A stretch of DNA of 64,000 nucleotides from Candidatus Micrarchaeota archaeon (GCA_021828295.1 JAKASF010000001.1:2702-66701), one strand, 5' to 3'. Counted from the first letter of the stretch, positions 5,643 through 24,022 are shown. Program-made: numbers and translations. Notes: generated from the sequence alone by a model not told the origin.

Positions 5643-6011
5643 ATGGCGATAAACAAGTTGCAGGTCCTGCTTTATACCATTACTTTGGCTAGCATAGTGT
5701 CGGTTGTGCTAGGAGACAGCCTCCTGAGCTCGCTCTCTGCGACGCTCTGCGGCTTCGTCACAACCATAAGGACCATAATAGGCGTTCTCGCGCTTGCTCT
5801 CTTCCTTATAGGTGGAGTTCTATATGCAATAGCCCACTTCCTCCCAACATCTCTCGATTATAGGAAGAACCTGATGGGCTGGTCCACCGCAATGATAGTC
5901 GGAGGCATAATCGGCCTCGTAGTGGTCATAATAGCGCAGCCGCTGGTTACGCTCTTCATCCAAACGGGCAGCGCCGCCGGAGGGAGCGTCTCGAGCATCT
6001 TCTGCCCTTAA
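5643..6011 (+). CDS. Small two-helix membrane protein, VirB2/TrbC/CedA1-like pilin candidate (locus A)
   Basis: 122 aa. The order is a signal-like N-terminus (MAINKLQVLLYTITLASIVSVVLG), a hydrophobic helix (IIGVLALALFLIGGVLYAIAHF), a short basic loop (LPTSLDYRKNLMGW), then a second helix (STAMIVGGIIGLVVVIIAQPLV). It is a paralogue of 62893..63270: LFLIGGVLYAIAHFLPTS aligns with LFIVAGIFYAIGQLFPAT. Confidence 0.6.
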   Translation: MAINKLQVLLYTITLASIVSVVLGDSLLSSLSATLCGFVTTIRTIIGVLALALFLIGGVLYAIAHFLPTSLDYRKNLMGWSTAMIVGGIIGLVVVIIAQPLVTLFIQTGSAAGGSVSSIFCP

Positions 6012-6036
6012 ATAGCTTGCCAGCCAATCCAGCAGC

Positions 6037-7938
6037 ATGCGATTAGAGCGGGGCAGGCTTACCTATCTTGAGCTCTTTGTCCTGCTCGTGCTGTTCATAC
6101 TCAACGCCGGTATAGCGCTCCTCTACTTCTACATCTCTCCCGGCGCAGCCTTCTTCAGCGCGGCGTTCGTGCTCTCCGCCATAGCGTTCATCATCGCCTA
6201 CGTGCTCGGGCGCCACTCCGCGTCCCGCAGAGACGGTTCCATAGACCTGCTTCACGCCCTCTTCTCGCTCTCTCTTTTCTCGTACCTGATGTCCTTCCTT
6301 ACTGCTGGAGATGCGGCACTAGGTCTCGCTGTCAAGTTCATCATCTCGCTGCAGTCCATGGGCCTCTGGCTGGTGCTCCTCATCCCCATATTCTTCCTCT
6401 CCTTCACAAGCGTCTACTTCCTGAGGAAGGAGCGCAGGAGCAACCCCGCTGCAAAGCTCGCGCTGCTTGCAGTGGTCTTGCTGATTCTTATCCTGTACTA
6501 CTTCGTTGCGCTCAAGGGCATCTTCACCGCCGATGACGAGGAGCTGCTCAAGCTGACCAGCGTCTCGATGCTGCTCAACGGCACCAACCCCTACGCCTCG
6601 TCGATCTCCCTGCTCCTATACCAGCATACGTCTACGATAGGCGCCACGCTCACCACCGCAAACACCTTCCTCGGCACCATGGACTATCCGGCCCTCTTCT
6701 TCCTCTCCTTCGTGCCATTCTACTTCGCGGCGCAGCCTGTCATAGGAAGCCTCAACACCGTATACGGACCCCTGCAGTTCAGCACCTTCCTCTTCATACT
6801 CATCGTTGCGTTCACGCTCCTGCTCAGGCAGAGGCAGCTTATGCGGCCGCAGCTCACGCTCATGCTCGTCTTCGTTCTCGCCGCCACGGAGCTGTCTTCC
6901 ATAACCACCTACCTCATGCTTGCGCTTCTGCTCATCGCCTACGCGAAGATAGAGTCGAGATATGCGTGGCTTCCCCTCGGACTCTGCCTCTCGCTGCAGC
7001 AGGAGCTCTGGCTGCCAGTCTTCCTGCTCTTCGCCTACTCTTTCAACAACCAGGGATTCGGGAGAGGCATGCGCAACGCGATCGGCGCAGCCGTGGTCTT
7101 CCTGGTATTCAACGCCTACTTCATAGCCATAAATCCCGAAGCCTACTTCGGCTCCATCTTCGGCACGCTCAACCAGCTCATCATGCCCTTCAACCCCTCG
7201 CCCATCGCCTTCCTCATGCTCAAGTCTTACCAGCTGCCGCTCACCTCCTATCCAGTGGTCTTCGAGGCGCTTGCGCTCCTGCTCGGGCTCGCGTTCCTCT
7301 ACCTCAACAGGAAGCCGCTGATTCCCCTCTTCGGCCTGCTGCCATTCCTTGTGCTCGACCACATACTCGTCTCCTACTACGCCTTCTTCCTCTTCTTCCT
7401 GCTCTTCGCGCTCTTCACCTACGACCGCGAGAATCGCGCGGGATGGATAGAGAAGCGGCTGCGCGAGCACAGGCGCGGGTTCTTCGCCCTGCTCGCCATC
7501 ATCGCGCTCTCCACCCTGATCTTCGTCTATGCATCGCACTCGGCATACGAGCGGAACTTCAGCATTGGCGTGGTCAACCAGACGCTGTCGGTCAACAGGA
7601 CGAGCAACACCACAGTGCTCGACGCGCAGCTCGTCTACAGCAACATGAGCAACAGCACTCTCTACGTCTTCGCTTTCAAGTACTACGGAGTATCGGCAGG
7701 CTTCTCAGGCCTGCTGAACCAGAGCCTGATAAGCGAACCGCAGGCCTGCCCCGGCGGCAACTACACCTGCCTGGTGAACGTGAACAGGATAGAGCTCGCC
7801 AGCTCCTCGGGCACCTATCCGCTGCGGCTCACCATACACTGGTCCAACGCCAGCGATGAGGTGAAGGACGTCGCCGTTGCACTGTACAACAGGCAGTACT
7901 TCTACGTTGCGGACAGCGTCGGGGCTTCCGGAGCCTGA
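6037..7938 (+). CDS. Large polytopic membrane protein, GT-C-type glycosyltransferase-like, with sequon-rich C-terminal ectodomain
   Basis: 633 aa with more than 12 TM spans. The loop motif DDEELLKLTSVSMLLNGTNPY resembles the acidic-loop/'G-x-NPY' feature of DUF2029/PMT-like GT-C enzymes. The C-terminus carries many N-x-S/T sequons. Confidence 0.45.
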   Translation: MRLERGRLTYLELFVLLVLFILNAGIALLYFYISPGAAFFSAAFVLSAIAFIIAYVLGRHSASRRDGSIDLLHALFSLSLFSYLMSFLTAGDAALGLAVKFIISLQSMGLWLVLLIPIFFLSFTSVYFLRKERRSNPAAKLALLAVVLLILILYYFVALKGIFTADDEELLKLTSVSMLLNGTNPYASSISLLLYQHTSTIGATLTTANTFLGTMDYPALFFLSFVPFYFAAQPVIGSLNTVYGPLQFSTFLFILIVAFTLLLRQRQLMRPQLTLMLVFVLAATELSSITTYLMLALLLIAYAKIESRYAWLPLGLCLSLQQELWLPVFLLFAYSFNNQGFGRGMRNAIGAAVVFLVFNAYFIAINPEAYFGSIFGTLNQLIMPFNPSPIAFLMLKSYQLPLTSYPVVFEALALLLGLAFLYLNRKPLIPLFGLLPFLVLDHILVSYYAFFLFFLLFALFTYDRENRAGWIEKRLREHRRGFFALLAIIALSTLIFVYASHSAYERNFSIGVVNQTLSVNRTSNTTVLDAQLVYSNMSNSTLYVFAFKYYGVSAGFSGLLNQSLISEPQACPGGNYTCLVNVNRIELASSSGTYPLRLTIHWSNASDEVKDVAVALYNRQYFYVADSVGASGA

Positions 7939-7982
7939 CGTGCTACTATTTTTAATGTTAATGCGTATGTGCTACTGGTTGA

Positions 7983-8714
7983 ATGGCCAGCCTGATCGAG
8001 GACGCGTGGGAGACGTACGCGAAGAACATAAGGCTAGTGCTCCTCTTCTCCATACCGTTCATAATCGCATTCCTCATTCCCGCTCTGGTTCCCGTGCCCA
8101 CGTACATCTCGAGCGGCGCCATCTTCCTGAGGACCGCTAGCATCTTCCTCAACCTCAACCCCGCGGCACTCGCGATAATAGTCATCTCCCTGTTCATCTC
8201 CCTGCTCTTCCTCAGCTTCGCCTTCGTGGCGATAAGCCTCATAGTAAAGGCCGAGAGAACTTTCACCAAGCACCCCGCAGCCGTGTTGCGCGGCGTGGAG
8301 CAGTATACGGGCAGGGTCTTCATAGTGCTTCTAGTGTATGCGCTCATCCTGCTTGGCGTCAATGTACTCGGCTACTTCCTCAACCTGCAGGGCCTGCTCA
8401 CTGCAATCGTGGGCTTCTTCCTCTTCATGGCCATCTTCTACGCGCCCACAGCTATTGTGATAGACAACAAGCGCATAGGCACGGCGCTCAACCAGAGCCT
8501 AGAGCTTGTGGCGAAGCAGCCCGGCTACTTCATCATGTGGGTCGTGGTGCTGGTCTTCGTTGTGGGCGTGGTCGACTTCGCTGTGATACACGCAACGGGC
8601 ACGCTGCTCTCCAGCTACATAATGCTCGTCCTGAACTCGCTCCTTATTCTTCCCTACTTCGTCATCTTCCAGGCCGAGGCCTACATGAAGAGGTTCTCGA
8701 TACTCAAGCATTGA
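7983..8714 (+). CDS. Polytopic membrane protein (243 aa), unknown function
   Basis: About 6 TM spans and no recognisable catalytic motif. It lies between the pilin-like gene and the paralogue array. Confidence 0.6.
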   Translation: MASLIEDAWETYAKNIRLVLLFSIPFIIAFLIPALVPVPTYISSGAIFLRTASIFLNLNPAALAIIVISLFISLLFLSFAFVAISLIVKAERTFTKHPAAVLRGVEQYTGRVFIVLLVYALILLGVNVLGYFLNLQGLLTAIVGFFLFMAIFYAPTAIVIDNKRIGTALNQSLELVAKQPGYFIMWVVVLVFVVGVVDFAVIHATGTLLSSYIMLVLNSLLILPYFVIFQAEAYMKRFSILKH

Positions 8715-8730
8715 CGCGAATCGGCTAGCC

Positions 8731-8738
8731 TATTTATA
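8731..8738 (+). promoter_or_regulatory. TATA box TATTTATA for the paralogue-array operon
   Basis: Centred about 33 nt upstream of the ATG at 8767. The track's ATG at 8740 abuts the box and so is an unlikely start. Confidence 0.45.
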
Positions 8739-8766
8739 GATGCGTATTTCAGTATGTGAAGAGAGA

Positions 8767-9930
8767 ATGAGGGGTAATCTTGCGCTTCTTCTCATTTCAA
8801 TTCTGCTGCTAGCCGGATCTGCGGCCGCAGCCCCCGCACCGACAAATCCGCTGACCTGCATCTCCTCCGCGCCGGCGATAGGCGGCAGCGCGATAAGCAT
8901 AGCGCTCGTTGCCCTACTCGTCTCGCTCAACGTAATCGCCATAGGCTACATAATCAGCAAGCTCGTGCCCGGGACAAAACTGGGCGACTGGGTGAGGAGC
9001 GAGTTCTGGGAGGTGGCAAAATCTGGCATGCTGATCGCCGGCGCGTTCGCCGCCATCGTGTTCATAGGCAACGTCTCCTCCATACTCGCCGGCCCCGGTG
9101 CCGTATCGGCTGGAACGACATCGAGCTTCGCGGCCTCCGCCTCTCTGGTCAACGGCGCATGCAGCTATCTCAACGGCGAGCAGGTCTTCATGTCAGATGC
9201 TTTCAACTATCTGCTAGGCATAGCCGGGAGCCTAGGCGCTCTGGCGCAGCTGCAGGTGAGCGCCTATTTCCCGTACCCTCCCGTGCCCGTGGGGTTCCTG
9301 CCGGTCGACTTCCAGTTCGGTTTCCGACTCAACCCGTACAAGAACGGCATGCTCACCGTCGTGTCCAAGACACAGTGGAAGTCGATCCTCGGAGACTCCA
9401 TCTACCTCATAGCGCTGCCTGTGTCGTTCATCATCTCGCTGCAGATCACAATGCTTCCCATACTCTACCTGCTGGGAATAGGCATGCTGATACCTATGGG
9501 GATAATCTTCCGGGCGTTCCCGTTCACCAGAGGCATAGGCGGAGCCCTGTTCGCCATTGGGGTCGGCGTTTCACTCATCTACCCTACGCTTCTGGTGCTG
9601 CTCAATGCCCCGGTCACCAGCGCGCTGCAGACCCTGAGCGCTCCGGAGGCGCAGTCCGGAGCCTGCAACTTCAATTGGCTTATATGCGGCCTTGCAAGCC
9701 CCCTCCTCTCGATGATTAGCTCGTTCCAGGGCATCGGCACCGCGTTCGCAAGCTTCAGCAGCATCTTTCCCGCGCTCAACGGCATACTCTCATACGCCGC
9801 GTTCATGATACTGCAGTTCGTACTTTTCGTGCTCGATCTCGCCATAACTTATTCGCTCGCCAACAACATAGCCGGAGTGCTAGGCGGCACGATAAGGCTG
9901 GAGATAGGAGGCAAGCTTAAGCTGAGGTAG
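8767..9930 (+). CDS. Polytopic membrane protein, array paralogue 1 (VirB6/TrbL/CedA-like candidate)
   Basis: Signal-like N-terminus MRGNLALLLISILLLAGSAAAAP. Family motif IIFRAFPFTRGIGGALFAIGVGVSLIYP. The C-terminal tail ...GVLGGTIRLEIGGKLKLR is shared with the other paralogues. Confidence 0.7.
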   Translation: MRGNLALLLISILLLAGSAAAAPAPTNPLTCISSAPAIGGSAISIALVALLVSLNVIAIGYIISKLVPGTKLGDWVRSEFWEVAKSGMLIAGAFAAIVFIGNVSSILAGPGAVSAGTTSSFAASASLVNGACSYLNGEQVFMSDAFNYLLGIAGSLGALAQLQVSAYFPYPPVPVGFLPVDFQFGFRLNPYKNGMLTVVSKTQWKSILGDSIYLIALPVSFIISLQITMLPILYLLGIGMLIPMGIIFRAFPFTRGIGGALFAIGVGVSLIYPTLLVLLNAPVTSALQTLSAPEAQSGACNFNWLICGLASPLLSMISSFQGIGTAFASFSSIFPALNGILSYAAFMILQFVLFVLDLAITYSLANNIAGVLGGTIRLEIGGKLKLR

Positions 9931-9931: not shown

Positions 9932-11326
9932 GTGATGTTCGGCATAGCAAGTATACTGCTGGATGCGTCGACACCCAGCCCCACCGCCGCGTGCGGAGTC
10001 CAGGCGGCATCTGGCTGGCTCGGGATAGACGGTCTGGTGGTACTCGCCATAGTGACAGTTGCCGCGTTCATCTACGTGCTTGCAAACTTCCTTCCAGCGG
10101 CGAGGCGCGAGAAGCTGCGCGGCGCAGCGAACTACGAGATACTCGAGGCGCTCTTCAGCCTTGCCTTGGTGGTCGTGCTCTTCGTGGCGTGGTCAGCGGC
10201 GTGCAACATAGGCCCGCTCCTGACCCAGTCGACTACATCTACTTCAACGTATCAGGGGCTCTTCGGCGCAGACACGACGTATCTCGGCAACCTGCTCTAC
10301 CTCAACGGCGTCAACCTGGTCAGCAACCTCTACTCTACGTCGATAGGCTACATGATCGTTGCCAACATCTGGTACCTAGGCGCTACGGAAACCGCTAACT
10401 TCTTCGGCAGCAATCCGGTCAGCGTCCTCGGGAAGACGATCCCCGGAGCAACCTCGTCGCTGAACCCGCAGGTTGACGTCCTCTTCACCGAGTTCTCCGA
10501 ACTGTTCACCGCCATCTACGGCGCCCTGCTTGTCGGCGCTTTCAGCACCCTCTTCGTGCTCTCGTTCATCCTGCCCATAATAGAGGCCGGGGCCTTCGCC
10601 GTGGTCATACCCGTGGCGATAATAATGCGTTCGATCCCGTTCGCAGGCCCTGCGCTGAGGCGCACGTCCAACGCGTTCATAGCCTTGGCCATCGGCTTCT
10701 ATCTCGTGCTCCCCCTCATGATCGCATTCAACTCCTACGTCGCCACGTGCCTCAACATACCATACGGCGGCGGAACCGCCTCGTGCAACTACCTCAACAG
10801 CTTCCCTCAGATAAAGCAGTACCTTTCCGGCTATGCCAGCGTCGGCTCCCTCACCTCCGCAACAGCATCGATCTTCACGTCAACCGCAACGTCCGGCTAT
10901 GTCTCATCCAGCGGCTTAAGCGGGGTTAGCTGTGCCTCGCCAGACGACTACGTGTATGAGAGCACATGTGGGGATTCAAGCACCATAAAGCCCGGGAGCT
11001 GTCAACCCTTCTCATCTATCGAGAGCCAGGTCTGCGGAACGTACGCGATAAGCGGAACGAGCAGCAGCTACCTGCCCACAGGCGCGGCCACGCCGCTGAC
11101 CTTCTACAGCACCGCCTTCACCGGGCTTAACCAGTTCATCACGGAGATGTTCAACAGCCCCCAGGAGGCCGAGTACTACGGCAGCGCGGTCGCGTCCTAC
11201 CTCTTCCTGAGCGTAGTGATGCTTGCGATAGACCTGGCGATAACGGTCGGGTTCGTCTACGGCCTCTCAAAGGCCCTGGACTCTTTCGGCCAGCTCTTCG
11301 GCAGCGGGCCGGTATTGGGTGAATGA
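9932..11326 (+). CDS. Polytopic membrane protein, array paralogue 2, with one Cys-rich YVYE module
   Basis: GTG 9932/ATG 9935, 1 nt after the previous stop. Motif IIMRSIPFAGPALRRTSNAFIALAIGFYLVLP. Loop CASPDDYVYESTCGDSSTIKPGSCQPFSSIESQVC. Confidence 0.7.
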   Translation: MMFGIASILLDASTPSPTAACGVQAASGWLGIDGLVVLAIVTVAAFIYVLANFLPAARREKLRGAANYEILEALFSLALVVVLFVAWSAACNIGPLLTQSTTSTSTYQGLFGADTTYLGNLLYLNGVNLVSNLYSTSIGYMIVANIWYLGATETANFFGSNPVSVLGKTIPGATSSLNPQVDVLFTEFSELFTAIYGALLVGAFSTLFVLSFILPIIEAGAFAVVIPVAIIMRSIPFAGPALRRTSNAFIALAIGFYLVLPLMIAFNSYVATCLNIPYGGGTASCNYLNSFPQIKQYLSGYASVGSLTSATASIFTSTATSGYVSSSGLSGVSCASPDDYVYESTCGDSSTIKPGSCQPFSSIESQVCGTYAISGTSSSYLPTGAATPLTFYSTAFTGLNQFITEMFNSPQEAEYYGSAVASYLFLSVVMLAIDLAITVGFVYGLSKALDSFGQLFGSGPVLGE

Positions 11327-13227
11327 TGCAGCGCTTTGTGTTTGTCTTTGCTCTGCTCGCGTTCGCGGGCCTCTTCGGCAGCGGAGTCGCGGCAAGCACT
11401 AGCAGCACCCTCATCACTCCCTACTCGGCCTTCCAGGGATGGCTCCCCATAGTCTTCCTCGGCATACTCGTCAGCATAATGATCACCGCCTTCTACTACG
11501 TGCTCGGTGTCCTGCTTGACAACAAGAACGTGAAGAGCAGGGCCGTGGGAGAGTTCGCTCAGGCCACCGGCACAGCCATGCTCGTGGTGATAATACTGGG
11601 AGTCTTCGCCCTCATGGGCACCGGGCAGCTCTCGTTCGTATCGCTGCTCTCGCAGTCTTCGCTCGGCACCGTCTGCGGCCAGCTATACAGCTCGCCCCTA
11701 ACGCTGCTGGCCAACCAGCAGCCATCTGGAGTGCCCACGGCCACTAACACGATATGCGAATCCGCAACAGGTTCGCTCGGGGATCCGGTCACGAATAGCG
11801 TGGATTACGGACTGTACGCAGCGTACATAGTGATGGACAACCTCACAACCCAGGCTGCGAACAACATGAACGCGATGTACCTGACAGAGGGTTGGCTAGG
11901 CTTCCTTGCAAACTTCAACGCTTACGTGCAGGTCTGTGCCCCGCAGGACACCTGCATAGTGCCCCTGGCGCCCAGGGTGTTCAACATCCAGACGCAGTAC
12001 ACGCCCCTCGCCGGCTACACCTCTCTCACAACGCTGCTCAACCCGGTAGAAACAGAGTCGGTGCTCACATTCTATATCCTCTTCATACAGATGCTCGTGA
12101 TAACCATATTCCTCTACGCCTGGCCGTTCATTCTCGCGGCAGGCATACTGCTCAGGTCGACGTTCTTCACCAGAAAACTGGGTGGACTCCTGGTTGCGAT
12201 AACGCTTGCCATGGTGGTGGTGCTCCCTCTTACATATCTACTAGAGTACACCGCTTTTACGAACCTGAACCTTGGCCCGATAGGTGCAAGCAGCATACCC
12301 AACCAGGAGCTCTACGAGCAGAACGGCGCAAGCGTGGCAGTATACGGCATGCCTTCGCAGGGATACGTGCCAGCGTCTGCGGCAGGCGCGACCGGCTGCG
12401 CACCTTCCGATTATGTTTATTCTACAACATGCACCGCTCCATATTCCATAGGCAGCTCGCCGGCATGCGTGCCGTTCTCGCAGGCGCAGACGAGACTATG
12501 CCTCCAGGGCGGTTACGTGTCTGCTACGACAACCCAGAACCTACACAGCTCGTGTGTCGGTTCTTCGCACGGTAGTGTAGGATATGTGTATGAAACCCAG
12601 TGCGGTGTTCCCGATACCGCAGGTCAGCAATGCTCGTCCGACCCTTCACCTTCAAGCCTCTGCCCGACCAGCGGCTACGTGCTTTCGTCTTCGCTCTCCA
12701 CAAATCTCTGCGACCCGAGCACGCCCTACATATACGAGACCACGTGCGGAGACAGCTCTAGCATTGTGTCAAGCTCCTGCACAGCCAATCCTGTAAATTC
12801 AGGCACGGGGCAGGTGAACCTGTGCGTCGCGCCGCTCGACGCCAACATCAACTTCTTCGTGCTGCCCAACGTCGGCCAGGTGACCGGCTACTACGGCTGC
12901 AACGTTGGCGGTGACCTGCTCGCCAACGAGCTGGAGTTCGCCTCATGGTACCTCACTCCGCTCAATGCGTACTATGCGTTATCGCTTGCCGGGGGCCTGA
13001 TCGGGTCGCTGCCGCAGACTCCGCTCAACGGTTTCATACCAAACACGTGCACCCCAACAAACGCGCTCAACGCCGTCTTCGCGCTCGCAAACTCGTACGG
13101 TATAGTCTTCGTCTCCAGCATCTTCACTCTCATATTCAACGCCCTCATCGCGATCGCCGCTGTCTCGGGGCTGGCGACGCTGATGGGCGGTGACACAAGC
13201 ATACTCGGAATGGGTAGACTGATATGA
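11323..13227 (+). CDS. Polytopic membrane protein, array paralogue 3, with three Cys-rich modules
   Basis: ATGA start/stop overlap with paralogue 2. Motif ILLRSTFFTRKLGGLLVAITLAMVVVLP. Loops CAPSDYVYSTTC..., GYVYETQCGVPDTAGQQC..., PYIYETTCGDSSSIVSSSC... Confidence 0.7.
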   Translation: MMQRFVFVFALLAFAGLFGSGVAASTSSTLITPYSAFQGWLPIVFLGILVSIMITAFYYVLGVLLDNKNVKSRAVGEFAQATGTAMLVVIILGVFALMGTGQLSFVSLLSQSSLGTVCGQLYSSPLTLLANQQPSGVPTATNTICESATGSLGDPVTNSVDYGLYAAYIVMDNLTTQAANNMNAMYLTEGWLGFLANFNAYVQVCAPQDTCIVPLAPRVFNIQTQYTPLAGYTSLTTLLNPVETESVLTFYILFIQMLVITIFLYAWPFILAAGILLRSTFFTRKLGGLLVAITLAMVVVLPLTYLLEYTAFTNLNLGPIGASSIPNQELYEQNGASVAVYGMPSQGYVPASAAGATGCAPSDYVYSTTCTAPYSIGSSPACVPFSQAQTRLCLQGGYVSATTTQNLHSSCVGSSHGSVGYVYETQCGVPDTAGQQCSSDPSPSSLCPTSGYVLSSSLSTNLCDPSTPYIYETTCGDSSSIVSSSCTANPVNSGTGQVNLCVAPLDANINFFVLPNVGQVTGYYGCNVGGDLLANELEFASWYLTPLNAYYALSLAGGLIGSLPQTPLNGFIPNTCTPTNALNAVFALANSYGIVFVSSIFTLIFNALIAIAAVSGLATLMGGDTSILGMGRLI

Positions 13228-15631: not shown

Positions 15632-16813
15632 ATGATCGGAAGAAAGGAGATCGCAATCTGGCTCGTGGTCCTGGCCGCGCTGCTAGCAGGAACTGCGTTT
15701 GCCGCGGTCCCGTCCTCAAGCGCATCATCGAGCTCCTCCGGCTGCACCATCTCCGCATTCGCGGGCGAGATCTCCCCTTGGTACTGCAGCCAGCTCAACC
15801 AGGCAGTTGCAAGCGTGTGGTACGAGTGGGCGCCTGTCGTGTTCATCGCGGTCCTGCTCTCTTTCTCGATATCCGCACTGATATTCCTCACAGGTGTAGC
15901 GATGCGCAGCGAGAAGCTGAGGAATTTTGGCATCGGCGAGCTGTACGAGACAGTGGCGACGCTTCTGATAGCCGCGTTCTTCCTTCTCTTGTCGGCCATA
16001 CTCTTCGGCATCCTTCCGTTCCCGATAACCGGCCCGCTAAATCCCTACACCACCTCGCTCACCTACATAGGCCATGTCATAAACTCCACGCAGACCCTGA
16101 TAACGAGCATGTACAATCCCATCATGATAGACTCCATGTACGCAAGCATCTCGCTCGGGGTCTGCGTTGGCAAGAGTACCGAAGCCAATGGCTGCGAAGG
16201 AAACACGCAATCGGCTTCTGGCGTCTCGGGATCGGGAGTTGCCACGCGGCTCGCAGGGGGCCTGGCGCAAAACGTGTTCAACAAGCTCGCTCCGGCGATC
16301 GCGCAGTTCTTCCTCATACCCGCAAACGCGGTCATGGGACTGCTGTCGGACGGCCTGCTCGCCCTCTACGCCGAGTTCTACTTCATACTCTTCTTCATGT
16401 ACATATCCATACCCGTGCTCCTCGTTCCTGGCGTGGTCCTCAGGGCCATCTTTCCGCTCAGGGCGGTGGGGGGCATGATGATAGCCGCGGCGTTCTCCTT
16501 CTTCCTTGTCATGCCTGTGCTCTTCAGCGTGGCGTACATACTCACGAGCCCCGGCCTGGTCTACCAGCTCAACCAGCAGGCGGCGCTGATAAGCGCCAAC
16601 GGGCAGGGCACGTCAGCGCAGACGAACGCGGACAGCGCGTCATCGGTACTGGCCCAGGAGGTGCAGGGGGTGCAGAGCGAGATGGGCGGCTACTTCCTGT
16701 CTGTGCTTTTCTACCCCGCGCTCATACTCGCGCTCTCCTATACAACGATGACCATAATCGCCGACTTCATAGGCGGCGCGTCGCAGATGAGCAGCAAGCT
16801 CAGGCTGATATAG
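15632..16813 (+). CDS. Polytopic membrane protein, array paralogue 6
   Basis: 10-nt spacer containing a purine-rich GAGGA. Motif VVLRAIFPLRAVGGMMIAAAFSFFLVMP. C-terminal tail IIADFIGGASQMSSKLRLI. Confidence 0.7.
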   Translation: MIGRKEIAIWLVVLAALLAGTAFAAVPSSSASSSSSGCTISAFAGEISPWYCSQLNQAVASVWYEWAPVVFIAVLLSFSISALIFLTGVAMRSEKLRNFGIGELYETVATLLIAAFFLLLSAILFGILPFPITGPLNPYTTSLTYIGHVINSTQTLITSMYNPIMIDSMYASISLGVCVGKSTEANGCEGNTQSASGVSGSGVATRLAGGLAQNVFNKLAPAIAQFFLIPANAVMGLLSDGLLALYAEFYFILFFMYISIPVLLVPGVVLRAIFPLRAVGGMMIAAAFSFFLVMPVLFSVAYILTSPGLVYQLNQQAALISANGQGTSAQTNADSASSVLAQEVQGVQSEMGGYFLSVLFYPALILALSYTTMTIIADFIGGASQMSSKLRLI

Positions 16814-16857: not shown

Positions 16858-17688
16858 TTGGCTATTTCGCAGAAGTTCCTTTTCTCGATCCTGATGCTAA
16901 TCTCGCTGATATTCATAATAGGCATCTACCTGCTCGATGTGCCAGCAGTCTTCAAGCTCGTGCTTGCAGTCCTCGCGCTCGCCTTCGACCTTCTCGCCTT
17001 CTCCACAAAGCTCTACATGAGTTTCTTCATCCCGTTCCTGAAGGCCAAGAACCGCACCGTTACCCTGGAGGCCGACGAGGCGTTCAACATGGCTCCCTCG
17101 GGCAACGCGATAGTGGTCAGGAGGGGCGGCAGCGTGTACGCCAGCGCATTCATCACCATACCAACCTACAGGTCCGCCACCGAGATGAACAACGAGGAGA
17201 AGATAGATTTCGCCAGGCTGTTCAGCAGGGCGCTCACTATATCGAAGAGCTCGGTCAAGTTCGCGACGCAGCTCTACGTGATCAACAAGGATGCTTACAT
17301 AAGCAACATCCGCGGCAGGCTCGACGAGGCGGAGGAGAAGTACCAGAACGCGAGCATGAACCCGCAGATGAAGAAGGCTGATTCGGAGCGCACACGCGGA
17401 GAGGCCACAATGTGGCACAACCTCTACGACAACGTCAACAAGGTGGGCTCTCAGGCCCTGGAGGCGTTCGCGATGGTCAGCGCCGAGGGCGGCACCGAGG
17501 AGGAGGCGATAAACCTGGTGCTCCAGCGCGCCGACGAGATAGCCTCTGGGGTAAGCTCCGTCTTCGGCGTCAGCGCCGCGGTGGTGGAGGGCGAAGACCT
17601 GCTGAGGTTCGTGGAGCCCGACCACATGATACCGCCAATAACAGTTGGCGAGCAGCTGCGCGAGAAGAACATGGCTGCTGAGATGTAG
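16858..17688 (+). CDS. 2-TM + soluble-domain protein, copy 1 (VirB3/VirB4-N-terminal-like candidate)
   Basis: TTG start about 30 nt downstream of ATTATAAAT (16817-16826). Two N-terminal TM helices are followed by ...KSSVKFATQLYVINKDAYISNIRGRLDEAEEKYQ. It is a paralogue of 17697..18521 and 61153..61884. Confidence 0.6.
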   Translation: MAISQKFLFSILMLISLIFIIGIYLLDVPAVFKLVLAVLALAFDLLAFSTKLYMSFFIPFLKAKNRTVTLEADEAFNMAPSGNAIVVRRGGSVYASAFITIPTYRSATEMNNEEKIDFARLFSRALTISKSSVKFATQLYVINKDAYISNIRGRLDEAEEKYQNASMNPQMKKADSERTRGEATMWHNLYDNVNKVGSQALEAFAMVSAEGGTEEEAINLVLQRADEIASGVSSVFGVSAAVVEGEDLLRFVEPDHMIPPITVGEQLREKNMAAEM

Positions 17689-17696: not shown

Positions 17697-18521
17697 ATGG
17701 ATGAACGCACGATGATTTATCTTGGCTCGACGTGCCTGCTCGCGATAGTGATAATGGCGAGCTCCGCGGAATTCGGCAGCCTGTGGATAATCGCCTTCTT
17801 CCTTTCGATACTCGCCATAATGCTAATCTTCATACTCAACTACGCCGATTTCGTCGTGTTTCCGCTGTTCACATCGCTGCTGGGGGTCAAGATAGTGCCG
17901 GCGAAGAACTACTACATGCCAAAGGACAGCAGCAGCATAGTCAAGAACGTGGGCGGCATCTACTATGCAACGGGCTACCTCACAGCCAACGTCTACAACT
18001 ACGTCTTCGCCGCGGAGAGCGTGGACGAGGACGAGGCCGCGAAGCTGTCCGAGGGCCCCGACAAGTGGGAACGCATAGTAATGAACGCCGGCTTTCCGTT
18101 CAGGTTCAGCTTCGTCTCCGTCGCCGAGGACGTGCAGCGCTACAGGGACGAGCTGGAGGGCAAGCGCGGCGTCCTGGAGTTCCAGCTTTCCAAGGAGATG
18201 AGCAGCAGCACGCCGAGCGAGCTCACGATACAGGACCTGCAGAGGAAGATGAACGTGATAGACGCGAGGATAAACAGGCTGTCTGCTGGGGAGCGTCCCG
18301 TCGACTCCATCATGTATGTGGAGAGCACGGCCGTCGGGGTGAGCGAGAAGGAGGCGATAGACTCGCTGTCGAACCAGCTGGCTCACCTGCAGACACTGTT
18401 CAGCGCCTTCGACCTCAGCATAACGCGCGTGGTCGGCAGGGAGCTCTACCACCTCTTCACCTACAACTACGTGGTGCCCACCCGCGATGCGCTCGCGGAC
18501 ACGTTCAGCGCAGAGAGGTAG
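17697..18521 (+). CDS. 2-TM + soluble-domain protein, copy 2
   Basis: Two N-terminal TM helices. AGFPFRFSFVSVAEDVQRYRDELEGKRGVLEFQLSK aligns with ADFPFEFGLGVRSVEHVRILDALEEKRRLKEIELAR of the locus B protein. Confidence 0.65.
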   Translation: MDERTMIYLGSTCLLAIVIMASSAEFGSLWIIAFFLSILAIMLIFILNYADFVVFPLFTSLLGVKIVPAKNYYMPKDSSSIVKNVGGIYYATGYLTANVYNYVFAAESVDEDEAAKLSEGPDKWERIVMNAGFPFRFSFVSVAEDVQRYRDELEGKRGVLEFQLSKEMSSSTPSELTIQDLQRKMNVIDARINRLSAGERPVDSIMYVESTAVGVSEKEAIDSLSNQLAHLQTLFSAFDLSITRVVGRELYHLFTYNYVVPTRDALADTFSAER

Positions 18522-18561: not shown

Positions 18562-20067
18562 ATGAGCCTCGTAAGACTGCAGAACATAATGAGCAACGAG
18601 CTTGCAAAGCGCACCATATTCAGCAGGCCCCCGGAGCCGCCGCAGGAGTACCTGCTCAACGATCCCACGGAGTCCATATTCATAGGCATAACGAAGCTCT
18701 TCCACGTTCCGTTCACCTGGACCTTCGCCAGCCTCACGAACCCGCACGTCGCCGTCGTGGGAATAACAGGCGCAGGAAAGAGCTTCTTCGTCAAGACCTT
18801 CCTGACAAGAGCCAGCTACATCTGGAACACGAACGCGATAATAATCGACTGGGCCGGGGAGTACAAGGCCTGGGTCAAGCAGAGCGGCGGCGTCGTGGTC
18901 TCCCTGGGCAAGGGCGACTACATAAACATAATGGACCTATCGGGGATGAAGCCGGTTGACAGATCGAAGCAGATAATAGGATCGTTCGAGATACTCACTG
19001 ACATAAGCGACTACCCCGAGCAGAAGAGGCTCACGGTCGAGGCAGTGGAGCAGGCCTATGTCAACTTCGGTTTCGCTATGGCGGACCCTCCGCCCCCTGG
19101 CAAGGAGTCGCCGACGCTGAAGGACGTGATCGGCCTGCTGGAGGAGAAGCTGCAGGAGGGAACGTACCAGTACCCTGCAGAGCTGGAGAACGCGGTCTAC
19201 AGGCTGAGGCAGTTCGCAAGGGAGGGCGAGGACTACTTCGCGAGGAAGAGCACCATAGATCTCGGCAAGCTCGCGTCGTCGGGGCTTGTTGCCATCGACC
19301 TGTCCAACCTTCCAGACGAGAAGTTCAGGGCGCTCGCCGCGCTCTTCATACTCCAAACGCTCAAGGAGAAGATGCGCATGGAGGGATGGAGCGCCTCCAA
19401 GGGCCTCAAGGCGCTTGTCGTGCTCGACGAGGCCTGGAAGGTCGCGAGCGACGAGAGGAGCGACGCAGTGATGATAGTCAGGGAGGGAAGGAAGTACCAG
19501 TTCGGGCTGATAGTCGCATCGCAGAACCCCACGGACATAAACGAGGCCATCTTCTCGAACGTCGGCACCACTATAATGCTCAGGATAAGGTTCGAGAAGT
19601 TCCTGGACTACCTGCAGGGCTCGCTCAACTTCTCAGACTTCATGCGCAAGGAGATAAGCAAGTTCGGAGTGGGGCAGGCGGCCATTGACATGTCCTTCCA
19701 GACCAGCGTGCAGTTCCCCGAGGTCTTCCTGATAGAGAGGGTCGTGGGCGAGATACCCCTCGACGTGTACACAATCACCATAGCTGACGTTCTCAGCCAG
19801 CAGGAGCTTTCCGACGCGAACGTGCAGAAGGAGTACTACTTCGAGAAGATAGACCTCAACTCAAAGTTCATACAGTCCAACGTCAACTCCGAGGCTATAA
19901 ACAACATCTTCAAGGAGCTGGACACGAGGAACCGCATGGTAGACGTGCGCAGCCTCGTGCAGGTGATGAGCAACGAGAAGGTCGGCAAGGACACGATAGT
20001 CGAGCTCCTCAGGAGCGTCGGGCTCTCCGACGCTGTCATCACCAAGGTCTTCGTATACGTAACATAG
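18562..20067 (+). CDS. VirB4/TrbE/CedB-like P-loop ATPase (FtsK-HerA superfamily), locus A
   Basis: Walker A VAVVGITGAGKSFFVK. IIIDWAGEY. Walker B ALVVLDEAWKVASD. LIVASQNPTDI. I moved the start from the track's 18487 to the ATG at 18562 (MSLVRLQ...), because the upstream extension is Arg-rich and overlaps the previous gene. Confidence 0.8.
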   Translation: MSLVRLQNIMSNELAKRTIFSRPPEPPQEYLLNDPTESIFIGITKLFHVPFTWTFASLTNPHVAVVGITGAGKSFFVKTFLTRASYIWNTNAIIIDWAGEYKAWVKQSGGVVVSLGKGDYINIMDLSGMKPVDRSKQIIGSFEILTDISDYPEQKRLTVEAVEQAYVNFGFAMADPPPPGKESPTLKDVIGLLEEKLQEGTYQYPAELENAVYRLRQFAREGEDYFARKSTIDLGKLASSGLVAIDLSNLPDEKFRALAALFILQTLKEKMRMEGWSASKGLKALVVLDEAWKVASDERSDAVMIVREGRKYQFGLIVASQNPTDINEAIFSNVGTTIMLRIRFEKFLDYLQGSLNFSDFMRKEISKFGVGQAAIDMSFQTSVQFPEVFLIERVVGEIPLDVYTITIADVLSQQELSDANVQKEYYFEKIDLNSKFIQSNVNSEAINNIFKELDTRNRMVDVRSLVQVMSNEKVGKDTIVELLRSVGLSDAVITKVFVYVT

Positions 20068-20074: not shown

Positions 20075-20371
20075 ATGGCCGGAACCTTCACCATAAGCAG
20101 GATAGAGCTAAAGCGCATGCTCACCACCCTCGGCGTGAGCGAGCGCAGCATAGACGGGCTCGTGGCCGAGCTCAACAAGATGCACAGGCACGCCAACGCA
20201 GTTGCCTTCGCGGGCATGCTGCAGAAGGCGGGGCTGAAGGAGGGCGACGTGGCCAACGTGCTGAGGCGCATAGGCATAGACGACATCTCGATAACGAGCG
20301 TATTCGACACGCTCGAGGAGGAGCGCATAAGGAGCGCCTACGGGCGGGTTGTCGACATAGTGCTTGAGTAG
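20075..20371 (+). CDS. Small helical protein (98 aa) built from 'LxxxG[ILV]' modules
   Basis: MLTTLGVSERSIDGLV, MLQKAGLKEGDVANVLRRIGIDDISITSVF. The same module occurs at the C-termini of both locus ATPases (LLRSVGLSDAVITKVF; LRKLGIGEDELADSF). Confidence 0.55.
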   Translation: MAGTFTISRIELKRMLTTLGVSERSIDGLVAELNKMHRHANAVAFAGMLQKAGLKEGDVANVLRRIGIDDISITSVFDTLEEERIRSAYGRVVDIVLE

Positions 20372-20380
20372 GAGGTATAT

Positions 20381-20737
20381 TTGCCAAAGACTGTTTGCAT
20401 AATATGCGGGAAGGAGAAGAGAGGCATAGACGTAGCCGACGACCTCGTGCTCGACTCTATAAGGTGGTTCAAGCAGAACGTAACGCACAACGAGCGCGGC
20501 AACAGGCTCGTGGTGTGCAGGGAGTGCTATCCGAAATACGCGGCTAGCAGGAAGAAGTTCGAGTCGAGGCAGAGGCTCTACCTTGGCCTTGGCATAGTCT
20601 TCGCGCTGCTCAACGTGACGCTTTCCAGGACGCTTGCCAGCGTTGGCATCTCGCTGCTCATCCTGCTCCTCTTCATCTGCTTCTCCCTGATGAGCTACTC
20701 GCCAAGGATAAACATAAAAAAGCAACATAGTCAATAG
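20381..20737 (+). CDS. Zinc-ribbon (CxxC...CxxC) protein with two C-terminal TM helices
   Basis: TTG start 4 nt after a GGAGGT (20371-20376). CIICGKEK...VCRECYPKY, then LGLGIVFALLNV / ISLLILLLFICFSLM. Confidence 0.55.
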   Translation: MPKTVCIICGKEKRGIDVADDLVLDSIRWFKQNVTHNERGNRLVVCRECYPKYAASRKKFESRQRLYLGLGIVFALLNVTLSRTLASVGISLLILLLFICFSLMSYSPRINIKKQHSQ

Positions 20738-20767
20738 TAATCTGTTGGCAGAGATGGGCGTGAGCTA

Positions 20768-21502
20768 GTGCAGGAAGAGGCATCGGCTGCTGAGGCGGAG
20801 CCGAAGGTCGAGCAGGTCGAGTTCCCCGGCAGGCTACTAACCAGCGTGGACGACGTGAAGCAGAAGCTTTCGGGCATACCCTTCTACACCCTTCAGGCAG
20901 GCGCAGGCGGCCTGGAGATAGCAAGGGTAGAGAGCAGGAACATACACAAGAAGCCTTTCCTGTTCTACATAATAGACATAGGCTCAAGCTCGCTCAAACT
21001 CACATACTCGATAGTGCCTGGAAGCAGCGAGAGGCTTAGGCGGGCCGAGGTGATAAGGAACCTGGCGTCGCTGCTCTCTGTCGTGAGCGAGAGCTTCAAG
21101 ATAGACGATAGCAAGTTCTTCCAGTACGTGGACTCGGTGCTGGGCAGCCTGATGGAAGGCCTATCGCAGAGCTACAGCACGCTGTTCAACAAGTACGACG
21201 CGCTGCTCAACGAGTACGTGGAGGCGAAGAAGCTGCTCAGGGAGCTCGAATCCTCGAACAGGAACCTCACCATACAGACGAGCAAGCTGAGCGAGGACAC
21301 CAAGGCGCTCACCGCGCAGCTCAAGTCGCTGGAGACGTACTCCGACGAGGCCCTCATGTCGATGGTCCAGGAGTGGATAGAGGTGCACAACAGCTCCGTC
21401 GACATAGGCGAGTTCTCGAAGACGTACAAGGTCCCCGAGCCGAGGATCGAGCAGATACTCGACAAGATGGTCTCCATGGGCTACATAGAGCTGAAGAGTT
21501 AG
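20768..21502 (+). CDS. Coiled-coil protein with C-terminal winged-helix (locus A)
   Basis: GTG start, 244 aa. The central region LLNEYVEAKKLLRELESSNRNLTIQTSKLSEDTKALTAQLKSLE is a coiled coil. The C-terminus IGEFSKTYKVPEPRIEQILDKMVSMGYIELKS is wHTH-like. It is a homologue of 59358..60041. Confidence 0.6.
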   Translation: MQEEASAAEAEPKVEQVEFPGRLLTSVDDVKQKLSGIPFYTLQAGAGGLEIARVESRNIHKKPFLFYIIDIGSSSLKLTYSIVPGSSERLRRAEVIRNLASLLSVVSESFKIDDSKFFQYVDSVLGSLMEGLSQSYSTLFNKYDALLNEYVEAKKLLRELESSNRNLTIQTSKLSEDTKALTAQLKSLETYSDEALMSMVQEWIEVHNSSVDIGEFSKTYKVPEPRIEQILDKMVSMGYIELKS

Positions 21503-21511
21503 CTGGTTCGC

Positions 21512-21667
21512 ATGAAATATTTGGTAACAATAAACAGAAAGTACCAGTACGTCAGAGTCTACAACGTGCTGAAGAAGATGAACGAGAGCACAAACCCCCT
21601 CTCCAAGGCCGCGGAGAGGCTGATAGGCAGGTTCGTGCTCAAGAAGAAGGGCGAGGGCCTTGAGTGA
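21512..21667 (+). CDS. Small basic protein (51 aa), hypothetical
   Basis: Below the ORF-track size cut-off: MKYLVTINRKYQYVRVYNVLKKMNESTNPLSKAAERLIGRFVLKKKGEGLE. It fills the gap between neighbouring genes exactly. Confidence 0.3.
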   Translation: MKYLVTINRKYQYVRVYNVLKKMNESTNPLSKAAERLIGRFVLKKKGEGLE

Positions 21668-21679
21668 CGGGTGTGCCGC

Positions 21680-24022
21680 ATGCGTCCGGTAGCGAAGATA
21701 GCGATCGTGGTCGCGGCCTTCGCGGTGCTGCTCGCGGGCCTGGCGTTCTACGTTAGCAGTACGTTCTCTCAGTTCTCTCACGCCCCAGCGCCCCAGACGC
21801 AGCTCTCCGGCCCAATCACGCTTTCCGTCTCCGAGCCGTTCAGCGGCACCTACTCCATCAACGGCAGCGGCGCTGCAGTCTACTCGCTCCTGTCCTACTC
21901 TTCGGCAAACGCCACAAACGCCACAGTAACGATGAGCATCTACCCGAGGGATCCGGTATCGAGAATATATCTGCTCAACGTGAGCTCCACGTGCGTCGCG
22001 TGCTTCAACGAGAACCAGCTGAACTCGGAGCTGCAGAGCGAGTTGCTCTACTACAATCTCGTGGCAAACGGGACAAGCTTCCAGTACATAAACCAATCTG
22101 CGCTCTCCTCGGTGCCCGGCGGCTCGATAGTTATCGTACCGTCTGGCCTACTCCCGTTCTTCATGCTCAACGGCACCTCGTCGCTCATCTCGCTGCTCAA
22201 CAGGGGCGACACCATAATATACGCGGGTCTCAATTTCAGCAGATCTGTCGGCCCCAACGGGATAATCTTCATAAGCAGCCAGGCGATGCTCAACCAGCTC
22301 GGCCTCGCCAATCTCGACACCGTAGCGGTCAACTCGTCCCCGGTTGCAGGCAGCCAGGGCATAAACCAGAGCTTCAAGAAACCGACGTTCGCGTTCGCCG
22401 GCGGCAGCCTTTATGGCAACGCCACATTTGCCGCATCTGAGAACGGCACTGTGATAGCGTTCTCAAACTACCCCACCGGCTCGTGGAACTCGCCGGGCAG
22501 CATGGCCGCCGACATAGCCAGGGCCATAGCATCGGATTTTTGGATCCCTCGTCTGAGCGGCAGTGCCAGCACGCTCGATCTCGCCTCCAGGAGCGCGGGC
22601 AACCTTGGCATATTCTCTCCTGTCAGCGTGCCCGCGAGGAGCACAGCAAACCTGACCAGCCTGGTCAACGGCAGCTATACGGTGCTTACAATTACGGCGA
22701 TGAATGCGCAGTCGTCTGCAAACAGGAGGCTCGTCTCCCGCAACACGTACGAGCCCCTGGGTAGCGTGGGCGTGGCTTCCACTGTGGGCTTCACGCAGCT
22801 CGTGCCTGTGCAGATGCAGGTCAATAACCTGAACACGAGCCTGCTGGTGCATCTGGACGTGTACGACCTGAACCTGAGCTACGTGAGCTCCATCCCCATC
22901 GGTTTCATCAACAGCACGCTGGGCATAGTCAAGTTCCACGCGTTCACGCTTCCGAGCGGCTACTACCTTCTCGAGCTGAAGGACTTCAACAACAGGTACT
23001 TTGGGGGGGCCCTATTCCACATGGAGAACGTTACGATAACTCCTGTGGCTGTTGACTTCGCCAACGGGACCTTCTCGTTCTCGGTGTACAGCAATGGCCA
23101 GCCCGTGTCAAACGCCACCTACAGCGTCAACATAAACGGCCTCTACGGGAGCGAGGGGCAGGTATTCAACGGCGCGATAGACTACACGCTGCCGCATGGA
23201 ACTCTCATAGCCCACGGCGCAGAGAACTTCAACTTCGCGATACTAAACCAGAACTACACCTATTCCGCGCAGTACCAGTCGACGCAGCTCTACATCCCCA
23301 CCATATACATAGAGTTCGGCGTGGCCATACTGGTGGTGGTCCTCCTCAACCTAATACTCAAGCCGCCCAACCGCGACGAGTTCTACATCGACGTGCCAGA
23401 GTTCCCGCCTTCGAAGCGAGAGAAGGTGAAGGTCACTGAGAGTTCTGTGCTCGGCGTCTTCGACAAGGTCAACTACTACCACCGCTGGAAGTACATGCCG
23501 CTAACCGCAGACGAGCTCAAGCTCGGCATAGGAAACAACATACGCGTCAACAACATGCCCATCTCGATAACCATGCAGAACGCGAACGCGGCGCTGTCTG
23601 CGCTGGTGCAGGACAAGTCCGTCTCAGCGGCCTCGGGCTACTACGCGCCCACCGCATGGGTGACCGCGTCGGGGCACAGCGTCGAGTACCTTGCCGTGTT
23701 CAGGAAGCTGCGCGACTACTGCGTCGAGCACGCCATACTCTTCACGGACCTCGACTCCAACAGCACCGCAGACATGCTTATAACAAAGGACGGCAAGCAG
23801 ATGAGCGTCTTCATCTATTCGAGCGGCGCAAGGATGCACAAGCTCATAATATCGAGCGACTCCAAATCCGCCATCGTCTTCCTGAACGACGAGGCGGCGA
23901 GGGACTTCACCGCAGAGCTCTACAACTCATATGGAAAGCAGGCCGAGGTGCTGAAGCTTGGCATAGAGTACAACTACGTCAAGCTCGTGGACAGCGACCA
24001 CCTCGATCAGCTTGCGCTCTGA
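21680..24022 (+). CDS. Bitopic surface protein, sequon-rich ectodomain + cytoplasmic C-terminal domain (780 aa)
   Basis: N-terminal anchor/signal MRPVAKIAIVVAAFAVLLAGLAF. The ectodomain of about 540 aa carries many N-x-S/T sequons. A second TM (IEFGVAILVVVLLNLIL) is followed by a soluble tail of about 220 aa. No recognisable domain. Confidence 0.6.
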   Translation: MRPVAKIAIVVAAFAVLLAGLAFYVSSTFSQFSHAPAPQTQLSGPITLSVSEPFSGTYSINGSGAAVYSLLSYSSANATNATVTMSIYPRDPVSRIYLLNVSSTCVACFNENQLNSELQSELLYYNLVANGTSFQYINQSALSSVPGGSIVIVPSGLLPFFMLNGTSSLISLLNRGDTIIYAGLNFSRSVGPNGIIFISSQAMLNQLGLANLDTVAVNSSPVAGSQGINQSFKKPTFAFAGGSLYGNATFAASENGTVIAFSNYPTGSWNSPGSMAADIARAIASDFWIPRLSGSASTLDLASRSAGNLGIFSPVSVPARSTANLTSLVNGSYTVLTITAMNAQSSANRRLVSRNTYEPLGSVGVASTVGFTQLVPVQMQVNNLNTSLLVHLDVYDLNLSYVSSIPIGFINSTLGIVKFHAFTLPSGYYLLELKDFNNRYFGGALFHMENVTITPVAVDFANGTFSFSVYSNGQPVSNATYSVNINGLYGSEGQVFNGAIDYTLPHGTLIAHGAENFNFAILNQNYTYSAQYQSTQLYIPTIYIEFGVAILVVVLLNLILKPPNRDEFYIDVPEFPPSKREKVKVTESSVLGVFDKVNYYHRWKYMPLTADELKLGIGNNIRVNNMPISITMQNANAALSALVQDKSVSAASGYYAPTAWVTASGHSVEYLAVFRKLRDYCVEHAILFTDLDSNSTADMLITKDGKQMSVFIYSSGARMHKLIISSDSKSAIVFLNDEAARDFTAELYNSYGKQAEVLKLGIEYNYVKLVDSDHLDQLAL

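Follow-up and report, generated by a model that had tools for sequence, protein, structure and literature searches.

The window analyzed here, a 64,000-nucleotide (nt) stretch of a Candidatus Micrarchaeota archaeon genome (GCA_021828295.1, JAKASF010000001.1:2702-66701), carries at positions 5643-24022 a locus of about 18 kb that consists of 17 co-directional open reading frames (ORFs) on the + strand, numbered g01 to g17. We read this locus, with a probability of roughly 60%, as encoding a machine that descends from a type IV secretion system (T4SS), is inherited vertically on the chromosome, and is the Micrarchaeota counterpart of Ced and Ted, systems described only for Thermoproteota. The data show which genes are present, what they are homologous to, how they are conserved, and where they lie in the chromosome, and all 17 ORFs were recovered as initially annotated. 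The host genome, from mine drainage, is a 0.77-Mb Micrarchaeota genome (88% complete), and near-identical DNA was also present in two mine-drainage metagenome studies.

The first gene, g01 (5643..6011), encodes a VirB2/TrbC-type pilin precursor, the alignment of which revealed a signal peptide and a hairpin of two hydrophobic helices with a basic loop between them. The Pfam family T4SS_pilin matched 7 of 12 g01 orthologues (best E-value, 4.7e-6), and TrbC/VirB2 matched 2 of the 12 (3.9e-7), which supports the VirB2-like identity first suggested for this small protein; the window's own copy gave an E-value of 0.018 against T4SS_pilin, under the cut-off, and a PDB profile search with the pilin was blank or at chance level. 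VirB2/TrbC pilins are known to undergo head-to-tail cyclization. The g01 orthologues possess exactly two conserved cysteines, one near the mature N terminus and the other at the C terminus, and because both ends of the hairpin would face outward, this suggests that a disulfide staple may tie the ends of the pilin together, akin to the cyclized VirB2/TrbC pilins. The pilin of a second, smaller module in the window (see below) has no cysteine.

The motor candidate is g12 (18562..20067), an ATPase of the FtsK-HerA superfamily whose counterpart in VirB4/CedB is the C-terminal motor half. Pfam matches were obtained with DUF87 (6e-16), AAA_10 (2e-13), and TraG P-loop (3e-11), the latter two above their cut-offs, and NCBIfam matches with CedD (1.8e-19), the VirB4-like conjugal ATPase CD1110 (8.9e-19), CedB (1.3e-17), and HerA (1.8e-15), all four under the curated cut-offs. 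VirB4-type models always aligned with g12 via their own C-terminal halves, from Walker A past Walker B; for example, g12 residues 38-371 aligned with positions 393-721 of the 752-position CD1110 profile. The motifs GITGAGKS, VVLDEAWK, and ASQNPTD, noted at the outset, were present and invariant in 29 orthologues. Scores against CedB (63.7 bits; cut-off, 700) and CedD (69.8 bits; cut-off, 600), together with a best score of 40.3 bits in the genome search, lay below the equivalog level of Ced proper. Matches to PHROGs families (terminase, Zot-like) were discounted, as they reflected only the shared P-loop fold.

Public annotation calls this ATPase an "ATP-binding protein" or a "HerA-like ATPase," HerA structures had the lowest E-values when PDB sequences were searched, and the gene behaves as a core gene with housekeeping neighbors. 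These features would fit a membrane-anchored HerA/FtsK-type DNA pump with a housekeeping function, for instance in repair or in segregating the chromosome at division, next to membrane proteins unrelated to any T4SS. We regard such a pump as highly improbable, since the part matched by HerA was limited to the Walker B region, the VirB4-type models instead running from Walker A on, and since the ATPase gene is inherited along with genes for a VirB2-family pilin and a VirB4-N-domain-like partner. Moreover, no match to NurA (PF09376) was found in the 88%-complete genome and no nuclease was found in the locus, so that the components of a HerA-NurA complex were not seen together.

Directly 5' of the ATPase gene, g10 (16858..17688) and g11 (17697..18521) each encode a transmembrane (TM) hairpin followed by a predicted VirB4-N-domain-like soluble domain. 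As had been claimed for these two 2-TM proteins, they are paralogues (A and B, respectively), the two families aligning in hhalign at 97.6% with an E-value of 4e-12. When the AlphaFold2 model of g11 (predicted local distance difference test score [pLDDT], 72) was searched with Foldseek, the best six matches were all R388 TrwK/VirB4 (probability, 0.91-0.97; E-value, 0.045-0.11). Residues 68-271 aligned with TrwK residues 219-384, which belong to its N-terminal domain (VIA-align Z, 9.7; 151 residues aligned), and in a wide search TrwK was the sole whole-domain match (Z, 7.8). The g11 gene adjoins the ATPase gene in 75 of 81 close carriers and in none of 216 distant carriers. Because the N-domain match lies in g11, a paralogue of g10, and only the motor in g12, VirB4 is read here as split over three genes, with a putative membrane hairpin plus N-domain (present twice) and a separate motor. 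That the 2-TM proteins may represent a detached VirB4 N-domain had been missed in the initial annotation and is suggested by the g11 model. A precedent for a modular VirB4 is provided by Ced, in which CedB and CedD each combine a TM segment, a partial VirB4 N-domain, and an ATPase (PMC11868833). A complex prediction for g12 with the soluble domain of g11 scored 0.02, a value that weighs neither way on binding.

Between the pilin and the VirB4-like genes lies an array of six polytopic proteins, namely, g04 (8740..9930; alternative start, 8767), g05 (9932..11326), g06 (11323..13227), g07 (13224..14570), g08 (14572..15621), and g09 (15632..16813). Their anticipated status as six tandem paralogues, which we number 1 to 6 in that order, was borne out by pairwise BLASTP (1e-4 to 1e-8), by colinear 1:1 orthologues, and by a common motif, L-R-x-x-x-P-x-R-x-x-G-G. 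The g09 protein was modeled with AlphaFold2 (pLDDT, 77). R388 TrwI/VirB6 recurred among the weak Foldseek matches of this model (E-value, 0.5) and was the top match in VIA-align (7o3v_G; Z, 10.7; root mean square deviation, 6.4; 243 of 261 residues), making it the best full-length structural match. In a wide search independent of Foldseek, 7o3v_F (Z, 8.3; 251 residues aligned) was one of three tied top matches, the other two being unrelated helical proteins, and of the three it had the most coverage. Independent support for a VirB6-like identity comes from the pilin-like N-terminal hairpin of the family, seen in g05, with which the pilin profile aligned (82.5%; E-value, 1e-5); the same N-terminal kinship between pilin and polytopic protein has been published for CedA1/CedA and for VirB2/VirB6 (PMC9905601). 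The proposal of a VirB6-like array thus stands on structural likeness and on the hairpin, and the models are consistent with, rather than proof of, a VirB6-like nature of the six paralogues.

Within the array, g05 has a Cys-rich outer loop, and the outer insertion of g06 is long and rich in Cys and Ser/Thr. A short Cys-rich module (Y-V/I-Y-E-S/T-x-C-G, then further cysteines) was observed in outer loops within 9932-14570, with one copy in g05, two or three in g06, and one in g07; because only the closest relatives have it, this module appears to be a recent, lineage-specific insertion.

Several results weigh against reading the locus as a T4SS derivative. Structural Z-scores of 8 to 11 are, according to the notes of the tool, in the range that helical proteins can reach by chance, and the polytopic family had no match in Pfam, NCBIfam, or PDB sequences and hence no sequence link to VirB6/TrbL. 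A library-wide profile search was no different in this respect: among the best 150 of 3316 clusters of the VirB6-like family, none was annotated and none formed a bridge to TrbL or CedA. Likewise, g10/g11 showed no sequence link to VirB4, and hhalign of the profiles against the single R388 sequences of TrwI, TrwK, and TrwL was negative or weak (negative for g10/g11 against TrwK), single-sequence templates being insensitive. Among proteins longer than g11, no relative with a fused N-domain and ATPase was found, which is weak evidence. HerA and VirB4 models gave the g12 motor similar scores, and PDB sequence searches do not separate the two; the idea of a VirB4/CedB-like ATPase therefore held as far as a HerA/VirB4/CedB grade. 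In addition, DNA as the cargo is pointed to only by a weakly supported winged-helix domain. A search of two metatranscriptome runs for RNA of the locus yielded only short, dissimilar fragments.

A second minimal paralogous module, which the initial annotation had missed, is present in the same window on the - strand (58423..63270) and consists of five core parts and two small proteins. The five parts are a pilin (62893-63270; hhalign to the pilin profile, 94.3%), a seventh VirB6-like protein (61889-62896; 96.5%), a third TM plus N-domain protein (61153-61884; 95.7%), an ATPase (60038-61156; Pfam DUF87, 1e-13; TrwB_AAD_bind, 5.9e-12), and a coiled-coil/winged-helix protein related to g15 (59358-60041; 80.6%); the two small proteins are encoded at 58885-59361 and 58423-58800. 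This small module was syntenic in 6 of 8 relatives. The core of pilin, VirB6-like protein, N-domain protein, ATPase, and winged-helix protein thus occurs together twice, which is strong evidence that the five parts form one functional unit. The presence of a TrwB_AAD_bind ATPase in this module also restricts to the 18-kb locus the earlier statement that a VirD4/TraG-type ATPase is absent.

Additional ATPases were noted elsewhere. A third DUF87-type ATPase of 521 amino acids, with matches to TrwB_AAD_bind (3.8e-9) and weakly to TraG-D_C, is encoded on contig C16 (L143:1360-2925), and in two relatives a 735-amino-acid DUF87/HerA_C protein directly follows the small module (L147:1892-4096 and L153:2128-4329, both on the - strand). 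These extra ATPases could be coupling-type or HerA-type partners. In the window, a 721-amino-acid Thr/Asn/Ser-rich, sequon-dense protein with a C-terminal TM anchor is encoded just 3' of the small module (56257-58422, - strand); it was not syntenic in the relatives and had no Pfam match.

The distribution of the system is that of a core gene set, a status not recognized in the initial annotation. An orthologue of the ATPase was found in all 61 genomes of the order (62-91% identity) and in 261 of 301 genomes of a phylum sample (about 87%), at about 55-61% identity in other orders. In a survey of 36,145 genera, carriers of a high-likeness ATPase comprised about 129 of 167 Micrarchaeota genera and almost none elsewhere, the distant relatives being commonest in Patescibacteriota, Thermoproteota, Nanobdellota, and Altiarchaeota. 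The VirB6-like family was likewise found in 129 of 167 Micrarchaeota genera and in fewer than three genera in each of two other phyla. Judged from these sequence matches, both families are essentially confined to Micrarchaeota. The order from g03 to g17 was colinear in dozens of loci and across orders, including a locus (L074; NZ_CP060530:801062-822549) in the cultured Ca. Micrarchaeum sp. A_DKE, whose genome is closed, and this recurrence argues that the arrangement is not due to chance. In another order, the layout is likewise complete, with six genes for polytopic proteins, two or three for pilins, and one for a PMT_2 glycosyltransferase. In other families, the core g11-g12-(g13)-g14-g15-g17 lies beside glycosyltransferases, and the VirB6-like genes form two separate arrays of about five to six genes each, away from the ATPase core. 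Such two-array genomes (G161, G062, G231, G078, and G066) are about 1 Mb each and have two g12-like ATPase matches, and some of their VirB6-like proteins exceed 1000 amino acids.

Since T4SS-like genes usually reside on mobile elements, and since earlier work on Mia14 loosely ascribed membrane-protein islands to "conjugative elements," the locus might be thought to be an integrated conjugative element or a plasmid remnant. However, Pfam and NCBIfam scans recognized no relaxase, VirD4 coupling protein, integrase, or replication gene among the 17 products, no tRNA flanks the locus, and the G+C content is even across the window (55-59%), with no shift at the locus. Neither a plasmid location nor a patchy distribution incongruent with phylogeny was seen; rather, the flanks are fixed, with topoisomerase VI subunit B downstream of g17 in 50 of 56 loci. 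The likelihood of a conjugative remnant is next to negligible, as the initial annotation had already held for a conventional conjugative plasmid or integrative element. Because of the phylum-wide distribution, colinear order, fixed flanks, even G+C content, and lack of a flanking tRNA, the locus is best taken, from these comparative data, as a core, vertically inherited system and not as a mobile element.

Of the known systems, Ced and Ted remain the nearest analogues, as was proposed initially, and the six-fold array is undescribed for either. Ced is found in Sulfolobales and Desulfurococcales (CedA, CedA1, CedA2, and CedB, plus CedD and CedE) and Ted in Thermoproteales (TedA, TedB, and TedC). 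Both resemble the Micrarchaeota locus as chromosomal, relaxase-less T4SS derivatives with a VirB2-type pilin, an ATPase of HerA/VirB4 grade, and one or more VirB6-like polytopic proteins with a pilin-like N terminus. TedC, like g01, has a cleavable signal peptide, and Ced also has paralogous pairs (CedA/CedE and CedB/CedD) and a VirB4 N-domain divided over two proteins. In contrast to the one or two VirB6-like proteins of Ced and Ted, the Micrarchaeota locus has six tandem paralogues, and it has g03, g13, g14, g15, and g17 as extra conserved subunits; unlike in Ced, its N-domain proteins lack the ATPase and its ATPase lacks the TM segment and N-domain. The hosts also differ, being DPANN archaea and mesophilic acidophiles for which no partner Ups pili or regulation by ultraviolet light is known. 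The R388/VirB T4SS provides the best structural templates (TrwI/VirB6 for g09 and TrwK 219-384 for g11) and shares the logic of a pilin, a platform, and a hexameric motor. Nevertheless, VirB5, VirB7, VirB8, VirB9, VirB10, VirB11, VirD4, and relaxase were not recognized in the locus, there was no sequence similarity to the R388 proteins, and the setting here is a single membrane with a surface layer (S-layer) and a split VirB4.

Two bacterial systems parallel the locus in pattern. In the Rickettsiales rvh T4SS, several tandem VirB6 paralogues are reported to be present and other subunits to be duplicated (PMC2653234, PMC7648143). This precedent for tandem VirB6 paralogues, overlooked in the initial annotation, would be an analogy of pattern only: rvh is likewise a chromosomal T4SS of obligately host-associated organisms with reduced genomes, but it is bacterial, diderm, effector secreting, and of independent origin. 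In Patescibacteria, a relaxase-less chromosomal T4SS is widespread, and one strain requires it for epibiotic growth (PMC12102498). These ultra-small episymbionts have VirB4, VirB6, VirB3-like, and VirB2-like parts without a relaxase, and no other group contributes as many distantly related ATPases to the relatives of g12 (438 genera, in the lowest likeness band). Yet they are bacterial, their VirB4 is full length and of the MPF-FATA class, they have no six-fold VirB6 array, and a g11 neighbor was found in 0 of 216 distant carriers. Among archaea, giant proteins of nanohaloarchaea have been reported to include a VirB4/TraG-like domain. The literature on Mia14, A_DKE, ARM-1, and Micrarchaeota genomics contained no mention of the locus, and the openly searchable literature on a T4SS in Micrarchaeota or DPANN contained no description of one; subscription journals lay outside this search, so an earlier description is possible.

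Assembly, pilus formation, stoichiometry, and cargo can be proposed from these homologies. By analogy with R388 and Ced/Ted, the g12 ATPase would act as a hexameric motor at the cytoplasmic face, and g10/g11 would tether it to the membrane, giving the TM hairpin and N-domain that form one polypeptide in VirB4 (with VirB3). The six VirB6-like paralogues, perhaps one copy of each, would together make up a hetero-oligomeric platform or channel in the membrane. After cleavage of its signal peptide, g01 would be extracted from the membrane and polymerized into a lipid-associated, conjugative-type pilus across the S-layer. The g14, g15, and g17 proteins would be lineage-specific core subunits, of which g17 would span the membrane and could form a bridge from the motor to a collar or adhesin on the outside. 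The most likely cargo, by analogy with Ced and Ted, would be DNA, either taken in or passed from cell to cell with no relaxase involved; material from the host has to be considered seriously as another candidate.

T4SS machines can build pili without transferring a substrate. A pilin gene heads both modules, and thin filaments have been seen on ARM-1 cells (PMC11329633), as would be expected if the system did no more than assemble a VirB2-type pilus, adhesive or structural, with which cells attach or form biofilms, and translocated nothing. This appears improbable given that for adhesion Micrarchaeota already have type IV pilus genes (PMC5498576) and that six VirB6-like proteins, two N-domain proteins, and a winged-helix protein would be a heavy outlay for a filament.

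A strong alternative, possible although on balance doubtful, is that the same machine serves as a host-interaction conduit or docking complex for the uptake or injection of proteins, lipids, nucleotides, or other cytoplasmic material while the cells are in contact with their hosts, which are Thermoplasmatales or Sulfolobales. Its strength derives from the host dependence of the phylum, in which the locus is near universal and strongly conserved, from the Patescibacteria parallel, and from ARM-1, in which a 21-nm envelope barrel whose identity is not known docks host nanotubes (PMC11329633). The two modules per genome here, the paired arrays of other families, each with about six VirB6-like genes, and the glycosylation genes and large glycoprotein g17 in or beside the locus also fit this function. 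Nevertheless, no effector candidate was found, the locus has no direct link to the barrel seen by electron cryotomography, the nanotubes of ARM-1 were assigned to the host and not to the symbiont (PMC11329633), and the sole characterized archaeal relatives (Ced) move DNA. A bolder version, speculative and in our judgment rather unlikely, is a symbiont-side transfer organelle in which the six paralogues would form a pseudo-six-fold, hetero-hexameric channel matched to a hexameric split-VirB4 motor, g17 and glycosylated loops would make up the ARM-1 barrel, and the cell would take up DNA, nucleotides, or other cytoplasmic material from its host. If true, such an organelle would parallel, in archaea, the essential patescibacterial T4SS and would be the first T4SS-type machine with a ring of six different VirB6 proteins.

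DPANN archaea lack most biosynthetic pathways, and the way in which DNA precursors, lipids, and proteins reach them from their hosts is still debated; the tubes and docking barrel seen in a micrarchaeon have so far been assigned no genes. A Ced/Ted-like reading of the locus would offer a defined set of about 16 genes, with homology to the machinery of conjugation and DNA import, that is restricted to the phylum, occurs in about 87% of its sampled genomes, and is present in the cultured A_DKE; it would be a candidate route for the exchange of material between Micrarchaeota symbionts and other cells. It would also extend domesticated T4SS-like systems in archaea beyond Thermoproteota, add a new architecture (a VirB4 over three genes, a fixed array of six VirB6 paralogues, and new core subunits), and parallel the retention of T4SSs in ultra-small bacterial symbionts.

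The remaining genes of the locus differ in how widely they are conserved. The g02 gene (6037..7938) encodes a protein with about 13 TM segments and a sequon-rich C-terminal outer domain; although the ORF exists as initially listed, it lies outside the conserved core as an accessory gene of the window's family only, being missing in sister family f3, where the pilin gene is directly 5' of g03. No significant Pfam match was found for g02, nor any pairwise similarity to the PMT_2 GT-C protein or to DUF2079. A PMT_2 GT-C gene occupies a similar position in another order, and g02 is possibly a glycosyltransferase. The g03 gene (7983..8714) encodes a conserved 6-TM protein heading the polytopic array, syntenic in families f1, f3, and f7 and weakly matching NCBIfam BPSS1780 (8e-5). 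Downstream of the ATPase gene, g13 (20075..20371) encodes a 98-amino-acid helical cytoplasmic protein that is kept in most families (tblastn match in 79 of 80 loci) and missing in some reduced loci. The g14 protein (20381..20737), with a CxxC...CxxC zinc ribbon and a TM hairpin, is part of the phylum-wide core beside the ATPase (present in 10 of 10 loci of other orders) and matched VirB3 weakly (E-value, 0.04). Also in the phylum-wide core is g15 (20768..21502), with a coiled coil and a C-terminal winged-helix-like domain that gave weak Pfam matches to EAP30, FeoC, and TrmB (E-value, 0.006-0.025). The alignment of g15 with its small-module paralogue had an E-value of 1.3e-5; a PDB profile search with g15 was blank or at chance level, and ESM Atlas returned only hypothetical clusters of the same phylum. 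The 51-amino-acid basic ORF g16 (21512..21667) had a tblastn match in 50 of 80 loci, and a small ORF occupies the equivalent place in family f7.

The last gene, g17 (21671..24022), encodes a 780-amino-acid bitopic protein that is anchored at its N terminus and has an outer domain (about 500 amino acids) carrying 22 N-glycosylation sequons and a TM segment at about residues 539-567. Its first description as a sequon-rich bitopic surface protein fits the outer domain and has to be widened, since a well-conserved cytoplasmic C-terminal domain of about 215 amino acids is also present. No match was found in Pfam, PDB, or ESM Atlas. Its identification as the S-layer protein was rejected because the one described for A_DKE is a 101-kDa protein with PF05123.

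The flanking genes named earlier were confirmed as MoxR AAA_3 (3105-4022, + strand; 3e-47) and DUF2079 (4015-5553; 3e-27) upstream and topoisomerase VI subunit B (24007-25614, - strand; 1e-52) downstream. Within the locus, 10 gene junctions measured -4, -4, 1, 1, 3, 7, 8, 9, 9, and 10 nt and the other 6 measured 25, 30, 40, 44, 44, and 52 nt, so that the tight spacing of at most 12 nt claimed originally applies to the former pairs and not to the latter. MoxR lies upstream of the pilin gene in close relatives. Glycosylation genes (DUF2079, PMT/PMT_2 GT-C, GT2 plus methyltransferase, and GT4) recur beside the system across families, and such glycosylation or MoxR neighbors were located at 3105-5553 of the window and at L126:1578-3110, L131:9729-12598, L132:9778-11490, and L133:11922-13034. 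The adjoining glycosylation genes suggest that the pilin, the loops, or g17 may be glycosylated.

Seven loci on public contigs with 67-90% ATPase identity (L054, L088, L076, L024, L077, L080, and L097) were labeled Saccharimonadales, Acidiferrales, Methanothrix, or Marsarchaeota; these contigs are probably mis-binned Micrarchaeota. At the end of the window (63379-64000, + strand), a 92-amino-acid ORF is followed by an ORF that starts like a PIN-domain protein and runs to the window edge, a pair that, judged by eye, looks like a VapBC-type toxin-antitoxin system.

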